A stretch of DNA of 64,000 bases from a virus. Its lineage: Duplodnaviria; Caudoviricetes. Each line of letters starts with the position of its first letter. Within the stretch, counting starts at the first letter, position 1. The position numbers and the translations under genes are program-made. The notes beneath the pieces are model-generated. The model had not been told where the DNA came from, made no database searches, and saw nothing but the letters and a program-made list of their open reading frames with translations. The DNA lies in IMG/VR virus record IMGVR_UViG_3300025154_000087, positions 1,359-65,358 of that record; one strand, 5' to 3'. Below are positions 1,825 through 21,894 of the stretch, piece after piece.

Positions 1825-2016
1825 TTACCACCCTTGCTCTGTGATATCTTTGATATGGGGAGGATCCTTTGGACTTGCCGGAAATTGGTTTATTCGATTC
1901 TTTACCGAAGATAACAAGCGATCCAAAGAGAAATCCCTGGGATTTGCCCCCCATGTTTCTATGAACAACTCATAGATCTCAATCCATTGTTCCCGAGAAA
2001 GTTTTTTATTTGCCAT
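1825..2016 (-). CDS. hypothetical protein
   Basis: 63 aa ORF overlapping the end of the thymidylate synthase gene. Confidence 0.55.
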   Translation of the reverse strand: MANKKLSREQWIEIYELFIETWGANPRDFSLDRLLSSVKNRINQFPASPKDPPHIKDITEQGW

Positions 2017-2740
2017 GGATTAACAGGTACCTTTCCTTGTTTTCCAGAGTTTTTTCGCTTGTCTCAATCTTATCAACACATAAGGTATTGACCAGCGGGA
2101 AGTATTGCTCGTAGATGTGCAAACCATCAGAAAAGGCAATGATGGAACCATCATCAAGGACAAGTCCCTTTTCCGATAACATACATAGCACATATTCCTT
2201 CAGCAATTGAAGACCACCCAAATTTTCGGGGAGCCCCGTGTAAAGGTCCCAAGACCGGAAATAAACCCCCATGTTAAGATTTTGGGCCACTCTTTTAAAT
2301 GAGATGGCCCGTAAACAAGGAGGATCCTTAAGGAAGGTGGTCAAAGGGGAACCAATGCAAATAGTGGCCTGGTTGGTATACCCTTGGGACCGGACAAGTA
2401 AATCAATGATGTAAGATAATTGCATATGGATGAATTCTCCATATGTATATACCTCATTCTCTTTCTTTTCACTCCCCATTATATAATTAACGAAATAGTT
2501 ATTGATCTTTTCCTCGTCCGTAGGGGAAGGAAGGGGGTAGGGACAAATTGGGGCTAATGGTCTAAGCCCCGGAAGGCGCATTTCAATCTTGACGGAATCC
2601 AGTTGCCGGCGGATTTGTCCAGTATAACTACCTTCTTCAGTTATGTAGTCATAGCCGTTTTTGGCGCATAACCACATGGATTCTCTCCAGGCATCTTCGA
2701 TTGTGGTGGTCTTGATTGTATTGCAGTTGGGATAAATCAT
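2006..2740 (-). CDS. thyA: thymidylate synthase, short archaeal-like type, dUMP-specific (TS1)
   Basis: PPCL catalytic Cys, RSWDLYTGLPEN with Asn at the E. coli N177 position, GLHIYE; RBS AAGGAG before ATG 2740. Confidence 0.85.
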   Translation of the reverse strand: MIYPNCNTIKTTTIEDAWRESMWLCAKNGYDYITEEGSYTGQIRRQLDSVKIEMRLPGLRPLAPICPYPLPSPTDEEKINNYFVNYIMGSEKKENEVYTYGEFIHMQLSYIIDLLVRSQGYTNQATICIGSPLTTFLKDPPCLRAISFKRVAQNLNMGVYFRSWDLYTGLPENLGGLQLLKEYVLCMLSEKGLVLDDGSIIAFSDGLHIYEQYFPLVNTLCVDKIETSEKTLENKERYLLIHGK

Positions 2741-2794
2741 TGTTTTTGTTCTCCTTTTGATTAAGATGAATGAGGTCGTACTGTATAATGGTTT

Positions 2795-2823
2795 ATTATA
2801 CATAATATTTATATCTATGTAAA
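2795..2823 (-). promoter_or_regulatory. leftward sigma70-type promoter
   Basis: TTTACA-N17-TATAAT on minus strand. Confidence 0.75.
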
Positions 2824-9969: not shown

Positions 9970-9998
9970 TTTACAAAAGTATTAACTTGCTGTATAGT
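9970..9998 (+). promoter_or_regulatory. repeated promoter
   Basis: TTTACAAAAGTATTAACTTGCTGTATAGT, identical to the 21379 copy. Confidence 0.8.
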
Positions 9999-12441: not shown

Positions 12442-12470
12442 TTTACAAAACAGTCTTTAAGTATTATTAT
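12442..12470 (+). promoter_or_regulatory. sigma70-type promoter heading the modification operon
   Basis: TTTACA-N17-TATTAT. Confidence 0.6.
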
Positions 12471-12522: not shown

Positions 12523-13182
12523 ATGTCAGACTTTGAAAAATTCTACGTGAACGAGGACTTCACCCTGGCCTTGGAGGTGGATGTAATCAATGCCGATGGA
12601 TCTTTGATCCCTGGAGTATCCTGCATTGAGTCGTTCGAGGATTTGATGAAGCTGGAAAAGGACAAGATCCTCAAAATTCATGCGTCGATCATGGGGCAGA
12701 ATTCCCCGGCCGATGAGAAAAAAAGCTCGAAGAAATTGGTGAATGAAATCATTGCCGAGTTGACCAAGGACAACCCGAAAACTCCGGAGTCAGCACCGCC
12801 GCCGAAAGCCACGAAAGCCACGAAAGAGCCTAAACCTCCGAAACCCCCGAAAGAGCCTAAACCACCGAAGGAGCCCAAGGAGAAGAAACCCTCCAAAATG
12901 GATCGGATCAAAGAAATCGTGAAGGAACGGGGATCAATCTCCCGTAAAGAGTTGGCCGGTCTCATCGGCTCCGATGAAGTGAATACCCATACAATGATTT
13001 CCATTCTGAAGAATCCGGCGCGGACCAAAGAGCCGACTGCCTTTGTATATGATCGAGCGACTTCCACCTACTATTGGCCTGGTGTTCCGGTCCCGGAACC
13101 TCCGCCAGCACCTGCGGCACCGCCGGCTGAAGATGAACACAAATTGGAAGATCAACTTCCGCCGTCCGCTATGATGGAATAA
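12523..13182 (+). CDS. DNA-binding protein with P/K/E-rich linker and C-terminal winged HTH
   Basis: KEPKPPKPPKEPK repeats; ISRKELAGLIGSDE HTH; paralogue of 21466..21894. Confidence 0.65.
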   Translation: MSDFEKFYVNEDFTLALEVDVINADGSLIPGVSCIESFEDLMKLEKDKILKIHASIMGQNSPADEKKSSKKLVNEIIAELTKDNPKTPESAPPPKATKATKEPKPPKPPKEPKPPKEPKEKKPSKMDRIKEIVKERGSISRKELAGLIGSDEVNTHTMISILKNPARTKEPTAFVYDRATSTYYWPGVPVPEPPPAPAAPPAEDEHKLEDQLPPSAMME

Positions 13183-13196
13183 GCCGCCGGCCCGCC

Positions 13197-13715
13197 ATGA
13201 CTTTCCGTATAATAGTCGAAGGTCCTGATGGCTCTGGGAAAACTCAACTGATAAGCTGGTTAGCTTTACGGCTGGGTTTTCCCATTTATCCTACACAAGG
13301 ACCCCCTAAAAATCCATCCGAGATAGTTCATCGAGTTATCTCTTCCCTCCAGTTATACGGGTATATTTTTGACCGTTTTCCCCTAATATCTCAAATGGTT
13401 TATGGACCAATTTTGAGAGACGAATATATTTTTGACAATCTATGGCTTAATCGTTTTGACGATAGAGACATTATAATTTATTGCAGGCCTCCCATTGGGA
13501 CCATACTACAAAATAATCTTAAAGTAAAACCCCATAAGAATCAAGAACATATACAGAAAGTAAATGAAAATCGATTAAAAATAATTAATAGCTATGATGA
13601 TATCATGGGTAAAGTGTCCATCCACCATAGATATTTTTATCTGTATAACTATTTAGAAAGAACTCCGGAGGACTTATGTGCGGAATTAACTTGTGTTTTG
13701 GGGAAAGCAATATAA
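13197..13715 (+). CDS. deoxynucleoside monophosphate kinase (TMP kinase-like)
   Basis: IVEGPDGSGKT P-loop, IFDRF-x-x-x-S-x-x-VYG. Confidence 0.85.
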   Translation: MTFRIIVEGPDGSGKTQLISWLALRLGFPIYPTQGPPKNPSEIVHRVISSLQLYGYIFDRFPLISQMVYGPILRDEYIFDNLWLNRFDDRDIIIYCRPPIGTILQNNLKVKPHKNQEHIQKVNENRLKIINSYDDIMGKVSIHHRYFYLYNYLERTPEDLCAELTCVLGKAI

Positions 13716-15043
13716 AGTTGATGAATAAACTCTTAGCCCACCGTGGGATAAGAGAGACCCATGTTGAATTAGAAAAAGGAATTTTTCTTGGGCATGTCCG
13801 CTTACCCATTCAAGGGTTAGGTGAATGTTTCGACCATCCCTATACTTTTGGTCCAATTACTGGAGCTTTTGTCGGGGAAATATTTAATTATAACAGTATA
13901 GATTCGAGGGCAAAGTCAGACCTCCCCGTATTGATTCATTCTTACTTTGAAGAAGGAGATGAGGCTTTTAAAAGATTCGATGGTTTTTGGGCCGTTATAC
14001 TATACAACAAGATTCAGAGAGAATTTAGGGTAATGGTGGATTTCCTGGCCAAGAAACCCTTATATATGAGATTGGATACACTGGGGATATCATCTGAGAT
14101 AAAAGCATTGATTCCCTTGGGGGATGTCTCCCTTAATAAGACTTATATTTCTGCTGTTCATAAATGGGGATATTGTCCTGACTACACGACAATCTTTAAT
14201 GAAATCGTCAAGATACCTCCGGGGGGTTGCGTAGTAATCGACCATAAAGGCCAAATAAAAGGCACATACATTTATGATAAATTAGAACCAAAACTCCTAT
14301 TGATATCGAATGAACTTACATTAGCTGTCAAAAATCGAACAGTTTCCGATGTCCCCATATCATTGCTTATGAGTGGTGGACTCGATAGCACCATTATCTA
14401 TTATTTACTCCGGGAGTTCCAGGAGAACATAAAGATTTTTCATATTGCAAATGATGAGGCTCAGTACTTGGATTATATCGATTTTCGCCCAGGGGATCAA
14501 GTAACTTCTTTAGAGATCCCCACCGAAATAACAAATACAACAACCTTACAGGACATCCTTTATTATAATGATGGTCCCGTTGATCTTGGGTCCATGATCC
14601 CACAATTTCTTCTTGCGAAAGAAATCAGAAAACATGGTATAAGTGTTTGCTTATCCGGAGATGGAGCTGATGAATTATTCGGAGGATACAAAAGAGCTAT
14701 GCAGTATGATTCCCAATATTCAGATATATTTCATGAATTGGTTTTCTATCATCTCCCCCGGTTGGATAAAATGATGATGTCATCCATGGTCGAATTACGT
14801 TCCCCCTTTTTAGCGAGGAGCGTGATTGAAGCAGCTATGGCTTTACCTTATTTTACTCGTATGGGGAAAAATGGGTTAAAAGCCATATTCCAAGGAATCA
14901 TCCCGAAAGAAATTTTGGATCGAGAAAAGAAACCTCTGAGATTTAAGGAGAATCAACGAGTAAGACTTATTCATTTATATACAAATACCTTTGATATAAT
15001 GATTAAAAATTCATCAATGGAGAGAAACCATGAATGTAAATGA
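13676..15043 (+). CDS. asparagine synthetase B-like amidotransferase
   Basis: N-terminal MCGI Ntn Cys, HRG, GEIFNY, SGGLDS PP-loop, SGDGADELFGGY, RLDKM...ELRSPFL. Confidence 0.9.
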   Translation: MCGINLCFGESNIKLMNKLLAHRGIRETHVELEKGIFLGHVRLPIQGLGECFDHPYTFGPITGAFVGEIFNYNSIDSRAKSDLPVLIHSYFEEGDEAFKRFDGFWAVILYNKIQREFRVMVDFLAKKPLYMRLDTLGISSEIKALIPLGDVSLNKTYISAVHKWGYCPDYTTIFNEIVKIPPGGCVVIDHKGQIKGTYIYDKLEPKLLLISNELTLAVKNRTVSDVPISLLMSGGLDSTIIYYLLREFQENIKIFHIANDEAQYLDYIDFRPGDQVTSLEIPTEITNTTTLQDILYYNDGPVDLGSMIPQFLLAKEIRKHGISVCLSGDGADELFGGYKRAMQYDSQYSDIFHELVFYHLPRLDKMMMSSMVELRSPFLARSVIEAAMALPYFTRMGKNGLKAIFQGIIPKEILDREKKPLRFKENQRVRLIHLYTNTFDIMIKNSSMERNHECK

Positions 15044-15692
15044 TGTTGTAATAAGCGGAGTTATTAAAGGGGATATGCTGGAATCCATTTTTGAGCATCA
15101 ACGAGCCCTTATGGAAAAGTATCACCATATAGAAGAAAACCAGGGTGTAGGGTATGGGATCCTGGCTGGAAGGGTCTTTAATCTCAATGAGATTAGATCT
15201 CAGTGTCTGTTGAAAGATTTTGCCTGGAGAGTGACAGAAGAAGTAATGGAGGCAACAGATTCCTTTAAGGATGGGGATGAAAATGATACTCATTATCTGG
15301 AAGAATTAGCAGACGCTTTGCACTTCATGACGGAACTTTGTATTGTTGCTGGGATCACTCCTGATATGATCACGCAGGACCCATTACTCCAGGGATATAC
15401 GGGGGATAAACTGAAAGGGTTATTCTTGATCGCATATACAGAAGGATCCAGAGTGGAAGTCGCCTATTCCATCATTCAGCATCTGGGAAATGCTATGAAC
15501 TGTCTGAAGCAAAAACCCTGGAAACAAACCCACATTCTGACGGATACAAAACGATTTAAGCAATATATCATTCTTGCTTATAAAGCGATCATTCAGCTAT
15601 GGTATCGAAACGATTCTTCCGCGGAGAGTATGTATAACTATTATCTCCGTAAAAACCAAGTAAATCAATTTAGACAAAGGAGTAAGTACTAA
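15030..15692 (+). CDS. dimeric dUTPase/dCTPase (T4 gp56-like, all-alpha)
   Basis: EEVMEA, EELADALHF, KPWK, K-x-x-VN-x-FRQ. Confidence 0.8.
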   Translation: MNVNDVVISGVIKGDMLESIFEHQRALMEKYHHIEENQGVGYGILAGRVFNLNEIRSQCLLKDFAWRVTEEVMEATDSFKDGDENDTHYLEELADALHFMTELCIVAGITPDMITQDPLLQGYTGDKLKGLFLIAYTEGSRVEVAYSIIQHLGNAMNCLKQKPWKQTHILTDTKRFKQYIILAYKAIIQLWYRNDSSAESMYNYYLRKNQVNQFRQRSKY

Positions 15693-16879
15693 TGAAAGCG
15701 ATTGGTATCACTTGCGGTATTGGGTCCATGCTTGTCGGAGCCAAAAAGGCCGGGTTTGATGTTGTGGGAAACATTGAATGGCGACGATATTACCATGTCA
15801 AAGATGGGAATGGGAAAAACACTTTTTTAGAGAACTTCCCAGGAGCCATTTTTGCAAAGACCCTTGATGATCTTTCCCCCGAACAACGGGAGATCATGAC
15901 TAATGCTGATATAGCATTCGGACATCCGGAATGTGGGAACTATTCTAATTTAACGGCGACGGCTCCCTCAAGTAAATCATTATCAGAATTTAATTCAGAT
16001 CCGGGGGATATTCCCATCTTTGCCGGAATCGTTGCCGCACTGAAACCCCGTTTTTTCGTTCAGGACAATCTTCCTAAATCCCTTCTTGGTTTCAGTATCC
16101 AGCAATGGGTTGATGCTTTACCCGATTATGATCTTTTCCCGGAGTGGGTTTCTAACTGGGGTTATGGAAACATCCAAAAATACAGGAATCGATTCTTCAT
16201 GATTGGAGCTCTTAAATCGGAAAGATTTTCCTTCGTTCCGGGGGAGCATCAGCAATCCATAACTTTGAGGAAAATCTTGCAGAATCTTCCCTCCATTAAC
16301 CAAGATCCCCATACGCTTGTCGGGACCACCTACCGGGGGAAAGGAAACTATTCAGAAAAAGCAATGAACTGGGCTCAATACCAGGAATACATGCAAAATC
16401 AACCGGACGGATGGACCATCGGGTACTATGCAGAGGATGGGACCTGGAAAAAACATGTTGGCTGCCGGAAAGGATTTAAGGATGATTATTGCCCTGTCAT
16501 AACTGGGGGAGTCCCCATTGCTAACCCCTTTACCTGTTTGCCTTTTACTCTCCGGGAACGTTGCCGAATCCAGGGGTTGCCTGATGACTTCATCATCTAT
16601 GGGCTGAGGAAGTTTGAAGATGGCACCTTCAGCCATGTTTTAAACGGGAATGTTAACCGACAAGTAGGAAAATGTATGCCTGTCCAATTCTGTGAATATG
16701 TAGCAAAACAGATCATAACTCATATAACCTCTGATTTTGGTTTTATGGGAAAGCCAACCCGGATACTACAAGAAAACCCCCTGGTGACAGAGGCCAAACT
16801 TTGGTACTGCGAGAATATTGGCTATACCAATCAACGAGAAGCTTGCCAAAATTGCTGGAAGAAGGGAAAATGTCAATAG
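15692..16879 (+). CDS. divergent C5-cytosine methyltransferase homologue
   Basis: Motif I TCGIGS, IV GHPECG, VI QDNL, VIII Q-x-x-RNR, IX TLRER-x-RIQG-x-PDDF, X QVGKCMP. Confidence 0.8.
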   Translation: MKAIGITCGIGSMLVGAKKAGFDVVGNIEWRRYYHVKDGNGKNTFLENFPGAIFAKTLDDLSPEQREIMTNADIAFGHPECGNYSNLTATAPSSKSLSEFNSDPGDIPIFAGIVAALKPRFFVQDNLPKSLLGFSIQQWVDALPDYDLFPEWVSNWGYGNIQKYRNRFFMIGALKSERFSFVPGEHQQSITLRKILQNLPSINQDPHTLVGTTYRGKGNYSEKAMNWAQYQEYMQNQPDGWTIGYYAEDGTWKKHVGCRKGFKDDYCPVITGGVPIANPFTCLPFTLRERCRIQGLPDDFIIYGLRKFEDGTFSHVLNGNVNRQVGKCMPVQFCEYVAKQIITHITSDFGFMGKPTRILQENPLVTEAKLWYCENIGYTNQREACQNCWKKGKCQ

Positions 16880-16892
16880 CGTAATCTTTTTA

Positions 16893-16921
16893 TTTACAAA
16901 AGAATTATTTTGATATATACT
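16893..16921 (+). promoter_or_regulatory. sigma70-type promoter
   Basis: TTTACA-N17-TATACT. Confidence 0.65.
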
Positions 16922-16969
16922 TAAACATGGGGTATTTATTAAAATAATTCTTTGGTCGGGAGGTTCGAT

Positions 16970-17245
16970 ATGGCAACGAAAGTCGAAAAACTAAGACAGG
17001 AGTTTTGTGAAAAGATCGAGGCTATGGGGATCAAAAAAGATACCTATGGTCGTTATAGATTCGAAGGGAAAAATGCCCTGGATGATCCGGCTATTTTCCG
17101 AATAAAACTCCAGAAGATTTCTTGGAGGTTCGAAGTAAAGGGGAAACTTACAGGTCAATGGGTCAAACTGATGGCCGGCTATTATACTGATGGACTCCCC
17201 TTGAAATTACAGGGGTCCATCCAAAGAAAGTTGAATCAATTTTAA
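16970..17245 (+). CDS. hypothetical protein
   Basis: RBS GGGAGG before ATG 16970. Confidence 0.6.
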   Translation: MATKVEKLRQEFCEKIEAMGIKKDTYGRYRFEGKNALDDPAIFRIKLQKISWRFEVKGKLTGQWVKLMAGYYTDGLPLKLQGSIQRKLNQF

Positions 17246-17274
17246 TAAAAGTTAAAAATACAGGAGGATTATTA

Positions 17275-18000
17275 ATGAGAATTTTCACCGACCCCATGGA
17301 AATGATAAAGGAAGTTGAGCGAGATCTCTTTGAAATGGGGACAATCTACCAGTCCGATACATGTCAGGACAAGATTGTAACCTTCGACCCCAACTATCAA
17401 ACGAAGGAATTATTCGGTTATGCCTATATGCTGACTGATTTTCCTGAAGATAGGTTGGAGGAGATGGTTACATATACCGGATATCTCGAGGGTAAGAATA
17501 ATTGGGTAGATGCCGAAGTAAATGAAAGACTTTTCGATTCCTTCGATATTAGTGCCCCACCTAATCCGGGGGATTCCTGGAGACAAAACTCTGATTTATG
17601 GGGACCTTTTCTTCGGAATGGGTGTTTCTCTTATTCTTACGCTGAAAGATGGAGAGCCCAATTGCCCTATATAATTCGGGAACTCCAAACCAAACCCAAT
17701 ACTCGGCAGACAGTTATGACTATGTATGACCGGCACGAAGACATGATGAACTGGGGAGGAAGAGACCGCGTGCCTTGTTCTATTTCCTATCAATTTGGTA
17801 TACGGGAGGATAGACTGATCGTTATCTATTCTCAGCGGTCCTGTGATTTCATCAAGTTTTTTGCTGCCGATGTCTACTTTACCATTCGATTGCTCCAATA
17901 TGTTGCTTCAGCAATTGGAAGGGAACCGGGGCAGTTCATCCACTTCCTGGGGTCACTCCATGCTTTCCAGGGGGATCTCCTTAAAAGAGGCATCTTCTAA
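17275..18000 (+). CDS. thymidylate synthase homologue, dCMP hydroxymethyl/methyltransferase type (TS2)
   Basis: TRQ, RVPCS, QRSCDFIKFFAAD with Asp at the N177 position, GSLH. Confidence 0.8.
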   Translation: MRIFTDPMEMIKEVERDLFEMGTIYQSDTCQDKIVTFDPNYQTKELFGYAYMLTDFPEDRLEEMVTYTGYLEGKNNWVDAEVNERLFDSFDISAPPNPGDSWRQNSDLWGPFLRNGCFSYSYAERWRAQLPYIIRELQTKPNTRQTVMTMYDRHEDMMNWGGRDRVPCSISYQFGIREDRLIVIYSQRSCDFIKFFAADVYFTIRLLQYVASAIGREPGQFIHFLGSLHAFQGDLLKRGIF

Positions 18001-18449
18001 TGAGTCGTCCAACTCAGAATGAATATTTCATGAGTTTGGCCCGTTTGGCTGGGTCTCGGTCTAATTGTCTATCCCGGCAGGTTGGGTGTATTTTAGTAAA
18101 TGATCAACATCAAGTATTATCCACCGGGTACAATGGTGTCCCTCGAGGATTTCCCCATTGTACTGAGGGGGGATGTCCCCGAATGGGGGCAAAGAGCGGG
18201 GAAGATCTTCACAAATGTTTGGCTGTCCATGCCGAACAAAACGCTCTTATATTTTGTCCGGATCCTCACAAAATATATGCAGCCTATATAACAGTTAGCC
18301 CGTGTCTAACTTGTATGGTCATGTTGCTAAATACTCAATGTAATCTTATCGTCTTTGACGAGATCTATGATAAAGAATCAATCAAACTCTGGGAAAAAAC
18401 CGGGCGCCGTTGGATATGTACCAACTCCGATGTTTCCCGTAAACTCTGA
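18000..18449 (+). CDS. dCMP deaminase
   Basis: RS-x-C-x-x-RQVG, STGYNG, HAEQNA, PC-x-x-C. Confidence 0.9.
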   Translation: MSRPTQNEYFMSLARLAGSRSNCLSRQVGCILVNDQHQVLSTGYNGVPRGFPHCTEGGCPRMGAKSGEDLHKCLAVHAEQNALIFCPDPHKIYAAYITVSPCLTCMVMLLNTQCNLIVFDEIYDKESIKLWEKTGRRWICTNSDVSRKL

Positions 18450-21378: not shown

Positions 21379-21460
21379 TTTACAAAAGTATTAACTTGCT
21401 GTATAGTACTTATGTAAAGGAAGGAAACAGGTTCCTTCTCCGAACCACAAAAAGGGAGAT
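21379..21460 (+). promoter_or_regulatory. repeated promoter plus conserved structured leader (copy 3)
   Basis: TTTACA-N17-TATAGT then GGAAGGAAACAGGTTCCTTCTCCGAACCACAAAAAGGGAGAT. Confidence 0.75.
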
Positions 21461-21465
21461 TGGTC

Positions 21466-21894
21466 ATGAAAACGAGAAATGATCTGAACAATATGTCAAT
21501 GGTGGAAGTGGTCAATTACTATAATTCTTTGGTCGATAATTATAAAACGAAGACCGAGTTCAAAACGGCCGGCCCAAAAACCTTTAATTCAAAGTCTAAG
21601 GCCATAGAGCGAGTCATGACGATTCAGGCCGAAATCGAGTCTGTCAATATACCGGTGGAACTTGAAAAGCCCGTACAAGTCAAAGAACGGGGTCATAAAA
21701 TGGCGACCATCCGTCAGATCTTAATGGATAATGATGAGGTTGATCGAGCAGATTTAGCCCATCGAATCGGATCGGATGAGAAGAACACCCATATTATGGT
21801 AACGATCCTTTGTAATGCCAAGAGAACGAAGGATTGGCTGGTTGTTACCTATGACCGGAAGAACAAAGTTTATCGACGGATAACGGGGAAGTAA
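21466..21894 (+). CDS. winged-HTH protein, paralogue of 12523..13182
   Basis: Shared KM-x-x-I...R-x-x-LA-x-x-IGSDE-x-NTH-x-M-x-x-IL-x-N-x-x-RTK...YDR. Confidence 0.7.
   Translation: MKTRNDLNNMSMVEVVNYYNSLVDNYKTKTEFKTAGPKTFNSKSKAIERVMTIQAEIESVNIPVELEKPVQVKERGHKMATIRQILMDNDEVDRADLAHRIGSDEKNTHIMVTILCNAKRTKDWLVVTYDRKNKVYRRITGK

Follow-up and report, generated by a model that had tools for sequence, protein, structure and literature searches.

The stretch of DNA analysed here (the window), from an uncultured groundwater phage, comprises 64,000 of the 65,358 bases of IMG/VR virus record IMGVR_UViG_3300025154_000087, which has a CheckV completeness of 100%. Positions 13197-18449 hold six named enzyme genes and one 97-amino-acid (aa) open reading frame (ORF), all on the + strand and mostly overlapping, with a family A DNA polymerase gene (PolA) downstream (Table 1). 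The kinase and AsnB-like reading frames overlap by 40 nt, those of the AsnB-like protein and the pyrophosphatase overlap by 14 nt, and TAATG is common to the junctions of pyrophosphatase with C5-methyltransferase (C5-MTase)-fold enzyme (MT-like) and of thymidylate synthase (TS) homologue with deaminase. The ORFs, these junctions and the family matches bear out a preliminary description of this DNA, which had placed clustered nucleotide enzymes and a methyltransferase homologue upstream of the polymerase. As argued below, the region is probably a phage pyrimidine hypermodification module based on a TS homologue, and it probably replaces the cytosine of the DNA with a nitrogen-bearing modified cytosine. 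Its two tailoring enzymes, AsnB-like and MT-like, are not explained by any published pathway found in the literature searched.

Table 1 Features of the module and its surroundings (positions are those of the window).
Feature	Position	Strand	Details
Thymidylate-kinase-like P-loop deoxynucleoside monophosphate (dNMP) kinase	13197..13715	+	172 aa; phrog_761
AsnB-like amidotransferase	13676..15043	+	455 aa; Pfam Asn_synthase, GATase_6/7
All-alpha nucleoside triphosphate (NTP) pyrophosphatase, dUTPase_2 type	15030..15692	+	220 aa; Pfam, phrog_12184
C5-MTase-fold enzyme (MT-like)	15692..16879	+	395 aa; PF00145 DNA_methylase 3e-16
97-aa ORF, no assigned function	16952..17245	+	phrog_22564 4.8e-6
TS homologue, Asp-type (TS2)	17275..18000	+	241 aa; Pfam Thymidylat_synt 5.2e-13
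dCMP deaminase	18000..18449	+	149 aa; Pfam, phrog_174
Family A DNA polymerase (PolA)	18430 (ATG) or 18355 (TTG) to 20373	+	Next gene 3' of deaminase
Second TS homologue, Asn-type (TS1)	2006..2803	-	Asn at specificity site
Promoter-like site TTTACA-17-TATTAT	12442..12470	+	Precedes ORF219-kinase-AsnB-pyrophosphatase-MT run; consensus match only
Promoter-like site	16893..16921	+	Precedes 97-aa ORF (o97)-TS-deaminase-PolA; consensus match only

The T4-like logic previously proposed for the kinase, NTP pyrophosphatase, Asp-type TS and dCMP deaminase is present and conserved. Alignment through the PDB to the Enterococcus TS places Asp199 of TS2 at the site of E. coli Asn177 and T4 gp42 Asp179, and a direct hhalign comparison with gp42 (97.4%) pairs Asp with Asp. 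This Asp is found in all 42 aligned homologues, the folate-binding Asp of the RSxD motif is unchanged in 26 of 26 TS sequences, and TS2 combines the T4-type Asp at the specificity site with the catalytic Cys. The best PDB matches (9IQU, 9IQC and 9IR2) are all Asp-type; no relevant publication on them turned up in the literature search. In the main text of an enrichment study, an Asp177 TS marks cytosine-modified phage contigs (PMC8670742). TS2 is predicted to be a one-carbon transferase acting on C5 of dCMP. For TS1, the window's other homologue, the best-matching TS models are of the archaeal type, yet it scores under their cut-off (72.8 vs 174.55 bits). TS1 was not found in the five other complete relatives, and 5 of the 6 complete genomes carry no Asn-type TS. 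The PF00303 model was too insensitive for such searches (TS in 6 of 16 records), and profiles built for this analysis were used instead.

The remaining core enzymes were assigned by family. The kinase matches phrog_761, labelled "thymidylate kinase" (6.9e-17), and its tblastn matches are labelled thymidylate or guanylate kinase in 142 phage records. Its translation carries the P-loop GPDGSGKT and a DRF motif, which we take to be marks of thymidylate kinases, and its substrate would be modified dCMP. The deaminase matches dCMP_cyt_deam_1 (1.4e-17) and phrog_174 (3.6e-38) and has the zinc site HAE ... PCxxC, so that by family matches both the dNMP kinase and the dCMP deaminase that a T4-type pathway requires are present. 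The pyrophosphatase matches Pfam dUTPase_2 (1.2e-8) and phrog_12184 (7.2e-31). An earlier call of dCTPase stands at the level of the NTP pyrophosphatase family; dCTPase activity itself is a prediction from pathway context, and no significant similarity to T4 gp56 was seen (BLASTP E 0.057).

The AsnB-like protein matches Asn_synthase (1.1e-42) and GATase_6/7 in Pfam, and its best PDB match is 1CT9 (7.4e-47). It retains an N-terminal Met-Cys-Gly, the PP-loop SGGLDS and the motif GDGADELFGGY; among relatives, the Cys2 nucleophile is present in 91 of 91 and SGGxDS in 92 of 92. Nonetheless, its scores lie under the cut-offs of TIGR01536 (214.4 vs 267.1 bits) and NF006949 (150.7 vs 499), and the oxyanion site formed by E. 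coli Asn74 is Val in the window protein and in 70 of 93 relatives. The atlas clusters that hold this clade are virus-dominated, and a search of cultured-phage proteins returned a best identity of 27.6%. Because it falls under the equivalog threshold, because the oxyanion Asn is missing in 70 of 93 relatives and because its clusters are virus-only, the AsnB-like protein is, judged by its sequence, a member of a virus-only clade and not an ordinary asparagine synthetase. In the public annotation this protein (P0001, 440 aa) begins 15 codons late, omitting 13676-13720 and with it the Met-Cys-Gly nucleophile that is retained by all 43 relatives having an N-terminus.

The MT-like protein combines an ordinary DNA C5-MTase fold with a catalytic Cys. 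Its AlphaFold model (predicted local distance difference test, pLDDT, 86; predicted template modelling score, pTM, 0.88) returns 3g7u as the top Foldseek match, with a probability of 1.00 to 3g7u, HaeIII and HhaI. The canonical motifs PPCQ, ENV and GN are all absent. Catalytic Cys81 is preceded by Glu80 (GHPECG vs canonical GGPPCQ), motif VI reads DNL vs canonical ENV, and Lys327 stands at the motif-X Asn of M.HaeIII (GN to GK), a Lys shared by all 49 family members whose sequence reaches this position. The TIGR00675 score is 26.8 bits against a cut-off of 100.65, and the best identity in the cultured-phage protein search was 24-30%. A non-canonical role had been suspected for at least one of TS2 and the methyltransferase, and the MT-like protein (HPECG, DNL, GK) does depart from the canon. 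Residues 373-394 (16805-16879) form a conserved C-terminal Cys-x11-Cys-x2-Cys-x5-Cys motif, which we take to resemble motifs that hold iron-sulfur clusters or zinc in DNA repair enzymes.

Relatives of the module were collected from both tailoring enzymes. A scan of IMG/VR with an MT-like profile gave 48 loci, 49 with the window (MT-centred set). AsnB is present in 44 of the 49, with all 5 absences at contig ends; TS is found in 43, dCMP deaminase in 40 and kinase homologues in 25, and the pyrophosphatase is of the dUTPase_2 type in 22 and of the PRA-PH/MazG type in 19. Gene order varies between lineages. This linkage is far beyond chance, and it answers a suggested neighbourhood search for co-occurrence of AsnB, Asp-type TS and GK-type methyltransferase. 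AsnB, MT-like and Asp-type TS occur together in all 6 complete genomes, which span G+C contents of 40-64.5% (the window, ~40%); since the related complete phages cover 50-64.5%, the hosts are diverse. In these searches MT-like turned up only beside an Asp-type TS, with its catalytic motifs altered in every member.

The view from the other tailoring enzyme is different. At least 596 stretches of IMG/VR matched AsnB, and at least 564 relatives were confirmed. The best 80 of these form an AsnB-centred set, in which TS accompanies 62, deaminase 60 and MT-like just 19. The 61 loci without MT-like, 22 of which have at least 5 kb on either side, are of three kinds: close PolA-type relatives, one of which (L103) has an N6/N4 methylase in the MT slot; a large set of phages with PolB, UvsX, DnaB and ThyX, in which the genes run TS-AsnB-deaminase; and 11 jumbo-phage fragments. 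The distribution of these genes indicates that the Asp-type TS is the hub, with AsnB and MT-like each an optional add-on, instead of six genes forming one obligate pathway as had been supposed. The module is widespread: besides the AsnB relatives counted above, a profile search of 1.84 billion representatives returned 124 cluster representatives of MT-like with E values of 1e-30 or lower. It is covered neither by cultured phages nor by the literature searched.

These 124 proteins vary at the residue preceding the catalytic Cys, where Ser, Ala and Pro also occur, and at motif X. A scan with Arg-type MT-like relatives (A4) led to modules without AsnB; the single R-type queries P0142 and P0219 returned one already-known locus and nothing, respectively. 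Three of the new loci (L199, L202 and L210) read kinase-pyrophosphatase-MT-TS-deaminase-PolA, with no AsnB and no space for one, and are orthologous to the window module (TS 49-51%, pyrophosphatase 38%, MT 38%). Altogether 8 MT-like proteins accompany TS without AsnB. Among 60 distinct MT-like proteins, Glu or Asp precedes the catalytic Cys in 48, and AsnB accompanies 44 of these, the other 4 lying at contig ends; Lys is found in 7 and Tyr in 1, none with AsnB. In usable contexts, AsnB is thus present with Glu/Asp in 44 of 44 and absent with Lys or Tyr in 8 of 8 (Fisher's exact p = 1.3e-9, uncorrected for kinship). Because the AsnB-less forms occupy three separate, well-supported places inside acid-type clades of a quick maximum-likelihood tree (58 rows), two Lys-type and one Tyr-type, the association appears from that tree to have arisen at least three times. 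The MT-like pocket may therefore sense the group made by AsnB. An acid occurring only with AsnB fits an enzyme that would raise the positive charge of that group, either from hydroxyl to amine or from carboxylate to amide. Of the two, the step from hydroxymethyl to aminomethyl is the simpler conjecture, because the sole conserved source of a substituent is the folate-dependent TS homologue.

The closest published system is the CmoA/CmoX/CmoY set of Synechococcus phage S-B43 (Yang et al., Nat Commun 2025, PMC12783734), and the match is limited to the pairing of an MT-like enzyme with a ligase and a basic residue at one site. According to the main text of that paper, CmoA makes carboxy-S-adenosylmethionine (carboxy-SAM); CmoX, a C5-MTase homologue whose Arg350 binds the cofactor carboxylate, makes 5-carboxymethylcytosine; and CmoY, an asparagine-synthetase homologue, ligates glycine to this base. 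The same text defines CmoX by an SPPC catalytic motif, counts 4257 CmoA vs 5615 CmoX contigs, reports that E. coli CmoA is able to supply CmoX and that engineered M.MpeI N374K accepts carboxy-SAM, and points to a large cluster of ligases, linked to CmoX and untested there, that carry a glutaminase domain. As in S-B43, the ligase gene of the window precedes the methylase gene, and hhalign (95%) aligns Lys327 to R350 of SpCmoX, the HhaI Asn304 site. The window residue is Lys, however, where CmoX has Arg, and its HPEC motif carries an acidic residue for the second Pro of SPPC. The A1 profile matches 8YF3 at just E 4e-4, the Foldseek rank of this CmoX structure (8yf3) is 12, and HaeIII and DNMT1 are at least as close as SpCmoX. 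The window AsnB matches SpCmoY only marginally (E 0.031) and, unlike it, has a glutaminase domain. Ligase and MT-like are tied here to an Asp-type TS, an enzyme absent from the main text of PMC12783734, and they are not coupled to one another as ligase and methylase would be in a Cmo system. CmoA itself was not detected: TIGR00740 found it in 0 of 1 window genome and 0 of 15 related records (5 complete), tblastn with SpCmoA in 0 of 6 complete genomes, and jackhmmer in 0 of 49 MT-centred, 0 of 80 AsnB-centred and 0 of 74 further loci; none scored above cut-off in three metagenome-assembled genomes (MAGs) holding relatives.

We favour, with a probability of about 0.55, a T4-style replacement of deoxycytidine in which AsnB adds a glutamine-derived nitrogen and MT-like acts on the resulting base in DNA. 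The substrates, the order of steps and the product in this scheme are predictions from enzyme families, active-site residues, conservation and covariation. The pyrophosphatase would convert dCTP to dCMP, and the Asp-type TS would add a folate-derived one-carbon unit at C5 of dCMP, the simplest product being 5-hydroxymethyl-dCMP. The thymidylate-kinase-like kinase would phosphorylate the modified dCMP so that the phage PolA could incorporate it, and the deaminase would supply dUMP to thymidylate synthesis. AsnB, with ATP and probably glutamine, would place nitrogen on the C5 substituent, our preferred guess being hydroxymethyl to aminomethyl. MT-like would then act in DNA on the C5-substituted cytosine, whose exocyclic N or O it would either methylate or exchange; it would not carboxymethylate plain cytosine with carboxy-SAM. 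One of two routes in the preliminary description, in which a hydroxymethyl group becomes aminomethyl and is modified further, fits the charge covariation.

A more specific version of this scheme can be put forward only tentatively, as one that may well prove wrong in detail. In this version AsnB would adenylate an alcohol, the 5-hydroxymethyl group carried by a cytosine nucleotide or by 5-hydroxymethylcytosine (5hmC) in DNA, and so aminate it, and MT-like, a C5-MTase fold put to a new use, would N-methylate or exchange the new group; 5-aminomethyl- and 5-(methylamino)methyl-cytosine would be examples of the resulting base. If true, the base would be a DNA counterpart of 5-aminomethyluridine and 5-methylaminomethyluridine (nm5U/mnm5U) of tRNA, the Glu/Asp-vs-Lys/Tyr switch beside the catalytic Cys would be how the enzyme reads the substituent, and alcohol adenylation would be new chemistry for the AsnB superfamily.

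Several observations weigh against the favoured scheme. To our knowledge, AsnB-family and other PP-loop enzymes adenylate carboxylates or lactam oxygens and never alcohols, and for this reason the step from hydroxymethyl to aminomethyl is without precedent. The glutaminase site of AsnB appears partly degenerate: besides the change of Asn74 to Val, the Arg49 equivalent is variable, being Arg in just 56 of 93 relatives. TS was not found in 11 of the 80 AsnB-centred loci, all of them jumbo-phage fragments, where a blank is uninformative. The covariation rests on three transitions in a quick tree. The invariant motif-X Lys/Arg, exactly at the position that binds carboxy-SAM in CmoX, is left unexplained by the scheme unless the cofactor or leaving group is anionic.

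The last point also speaks for a CmoX/CmoY-type route without a phage CmoA, in which MT-like would use host carboxy-SAM to make 5-carboxymethylcytosine in DNA, AsnB would amidate this to 5-carbamoylmethylcytosine with ammonia from glutamine, and TS, kinase, pyrophosphatase and deaminase would only supply nucleotides. Such a route corresponds to the other option of the preliminary description, 5-carboxymethyl to 5-carbamoylmethyl. Lys327 occupies the position of the SpCmoX Arg that binds the carboxy-SAM carboxylate, equivalent to the motif-X Asn of HaeIII, and the engineered M.MpeI N374K takes this cofactor (main text of PMC12783734). A host supply of carboxy-SAM is possible, as the E. coli CmoA result in the same text illustrates, and both the shared gene order and the glutaminase-bearing ligase cluster reported there add to the resemblance. 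Despite this precedent we regard the route as unlikely, because CmoA is missing throughout the genomes and loci searched (in contrast to the CmoA and CmoX counts of Yang et al., and with none above cut-off in the three MAGs with relatives), because AsnB is tied to the Asp-type TS and not to MT-like (61 of 80 AsnB loci lack MT-like), and because MT-like also occurs without AsnB (8 proteins). HPEC in place of SPPC and the distant relationships to SpCmoX and SpCmoY also count against it, and C5 replacement at the level of the nucleotide pool would leave no free C5 to carboxymethylate.

It seems quite improbable that the TS homologue is instead a dCMP methylase of the XP12 type, or that its products are deaminated to dTMP or 5-hydroxymethyl-dUMP (hmdUMP), leaving DNA cytosine as 5-methylcytosine (5mC) or unmodified and AsnB and MT-like acting on something other than a hydroxymethyl group. 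TS N177D mutants do methylate dCMP (work cited in the main text of PMC8670742), the deaminase adjoins TS or AsnB in most loci, and the sequence does not tell hydroxymethyl transfer from methyl transfer or amine capture. 5mC, however, offers no oxygen for AsnB-type activation, the charge covariation implies a polar group that AsnB changes, and the absence of an Asn-type TS from 5 of 6 complete genomes is also at odds with this reading. Least credible to us is the absence of any joint pathway. Ordinary genes of nucleotide supply would then share the region with an accessory asparagine synthetase and a common 5mC methylase that counters restriction, brought together only by the clustering of early replication genes. 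Such genes are common in phage replication modules, N6/N4 methylases fill the MT slot or are fused to MT-like, and the kinase and TS families occur in cultured phages without AsnB or MT-like. A chance neighbourhood of this kind would be hard to reconcile with a linkage that outlasts rearrangement and G+C contents from 40 to 64.5%, with a virus-only AsnB under its equivalog cut-off, with an MT-like found only beside the Asp-type TS and altered in its catalytic motifs throughout, or with a pocket residue that tracks AsnB.

The favoured scheme also differs from the other known systems. It shares with T4 an Asp-type TS, an NTP pyrophosphatase, a dNMP-kinase-like protein and a dCMP deaminase near the polymerase, together with optional tailoring enzymes that act on the TS product. 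The kinase is thymidylate-kinase-like, however, where T4 has gp1, the pyrophosphatase is not detectably related to gp56, and tailoring falls to AsnB-like and C5-MTase-fold enzymes instead of glycosyltransferases. C5-MTases acting on 5hmC are said, from work of the Klimasauskas laboratory, to exchange the hydroxyl for thiols or selenols or to remove formaldehyde in vitro. The presumed likeness lies in an active site that handles a C5-substituted cytosine via a Cys-C6 adduct; in those cases ordinary methylases catalyse side reactions in vitro, whereas here a whole natural family would be specialised. The 5-hydroxymethylcytosine carbamoyltransferase modules found by MetaGPA likewise pair an Asp177 TS with a tailoring enzyme in uncultured phages, yet the enzyme and its chemistry are different; the main text of that study contains neither "amidotransferase" nor "PF00733", and "asparagine" solely for TS Asn177 and in a cited title (PMC8670742). 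In thymidine hypermodification (5-hydroxymethyldeoxyuridine (5-hmdU) DNA kinase and substituting enzymes, with 5-aminomethyldeoxyuridine (5-NmdU) among the products; see PMC8989533, PMC11472151), a 5-hydroxymethylpyrimidine is likewise activated and its O replaced by N, but the base is uracil, activation is by a DNA kinase, and there is no AsnB-like or C5-MTase-like enzyme. The window kinase had no match to M6- or ViI-type phages among the matches listed. The earlier impression that this gene set is not a characterised pathway holds for the literature searched, which included the main texts of PMC12783734 and PMC8670742.

If confirmed, the module would add a base to those known in DNA, a reaction type new to the AsnB fold and a natural C5-MTase-fold enzyme for substituted cytosines. 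The phage cytosine hypermodifications known to us are few: glycosylated hmC, carbamoylated hmC, TET-derived forms, and 5-carboxymethylcytosine (5cxmC) with its glycine amide. A further one would matter for how phages evade restriction and CRISPR and for enzymatic tools that label DNA. The sister modules with and without AsnB, together with the single switching residue, constitute a ready experimental design.

Several variants of the module genes were encountered among the relatives. In L017/L100 (record G015), an intein with a homing-endonuclease domain (Intein_splicing, DUF559/MTES_1575) interrupts MT-like precisely where the Glu meets the catalytic Cys (SHPE|C...). MT-like is fused to an N6/N4 DNA methylase domain in L010:7968-10274, L016:7788-10379 and representatives P0122-P0128 (700-1200 aa). 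A 2.78-Mb contig of an alphaproteobacterial MAG (L050) holds a frameshifted MT-like remnant (residues 1-201) without AsnB or TS, which may be what is left of a former prophage and may point to a host lineage. In 23 loci of the L112-L180 group (PolB/UvsX phages), DUF1599, named "Nucleotide modification associated domain 1" in Pfam, lies immediately 5' of TS-AsnB-deaminase; this group also keeps an unannotated 310-aa protein.

As for the surroundings of the module, no counterpart of the 97-aa ORF was found in the related loci searched, and no tRNA genes were found in the window genome. A nucleotide search against phage records gave no match to the window; identical DNA is present in contigs of groundwater and soil metagenome runs (15 rows, 6 studies), with no RNA data set among the runs listed. 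Promoter-like sites of the type TTTACA-17-TATAxT occur at 9970, 12442, 16893 and 21379 (+), each preceding an early gene block. ORF219 (12523-13182), a Pro/Lys-rich protein encoded just 5' of the kinase, is paralogous over its last ~55 residues to the C-terminus of ORF144 (21460-21894; 43% identity), and weak copies of this segment are found in G007. The PolA ORF opens with the TTG at 18355, and alignments to homologues begin at about residue 25. Its best match (41%) comes from a Pseudanabaena phage, and those from proteobacterial phages are almost as good.

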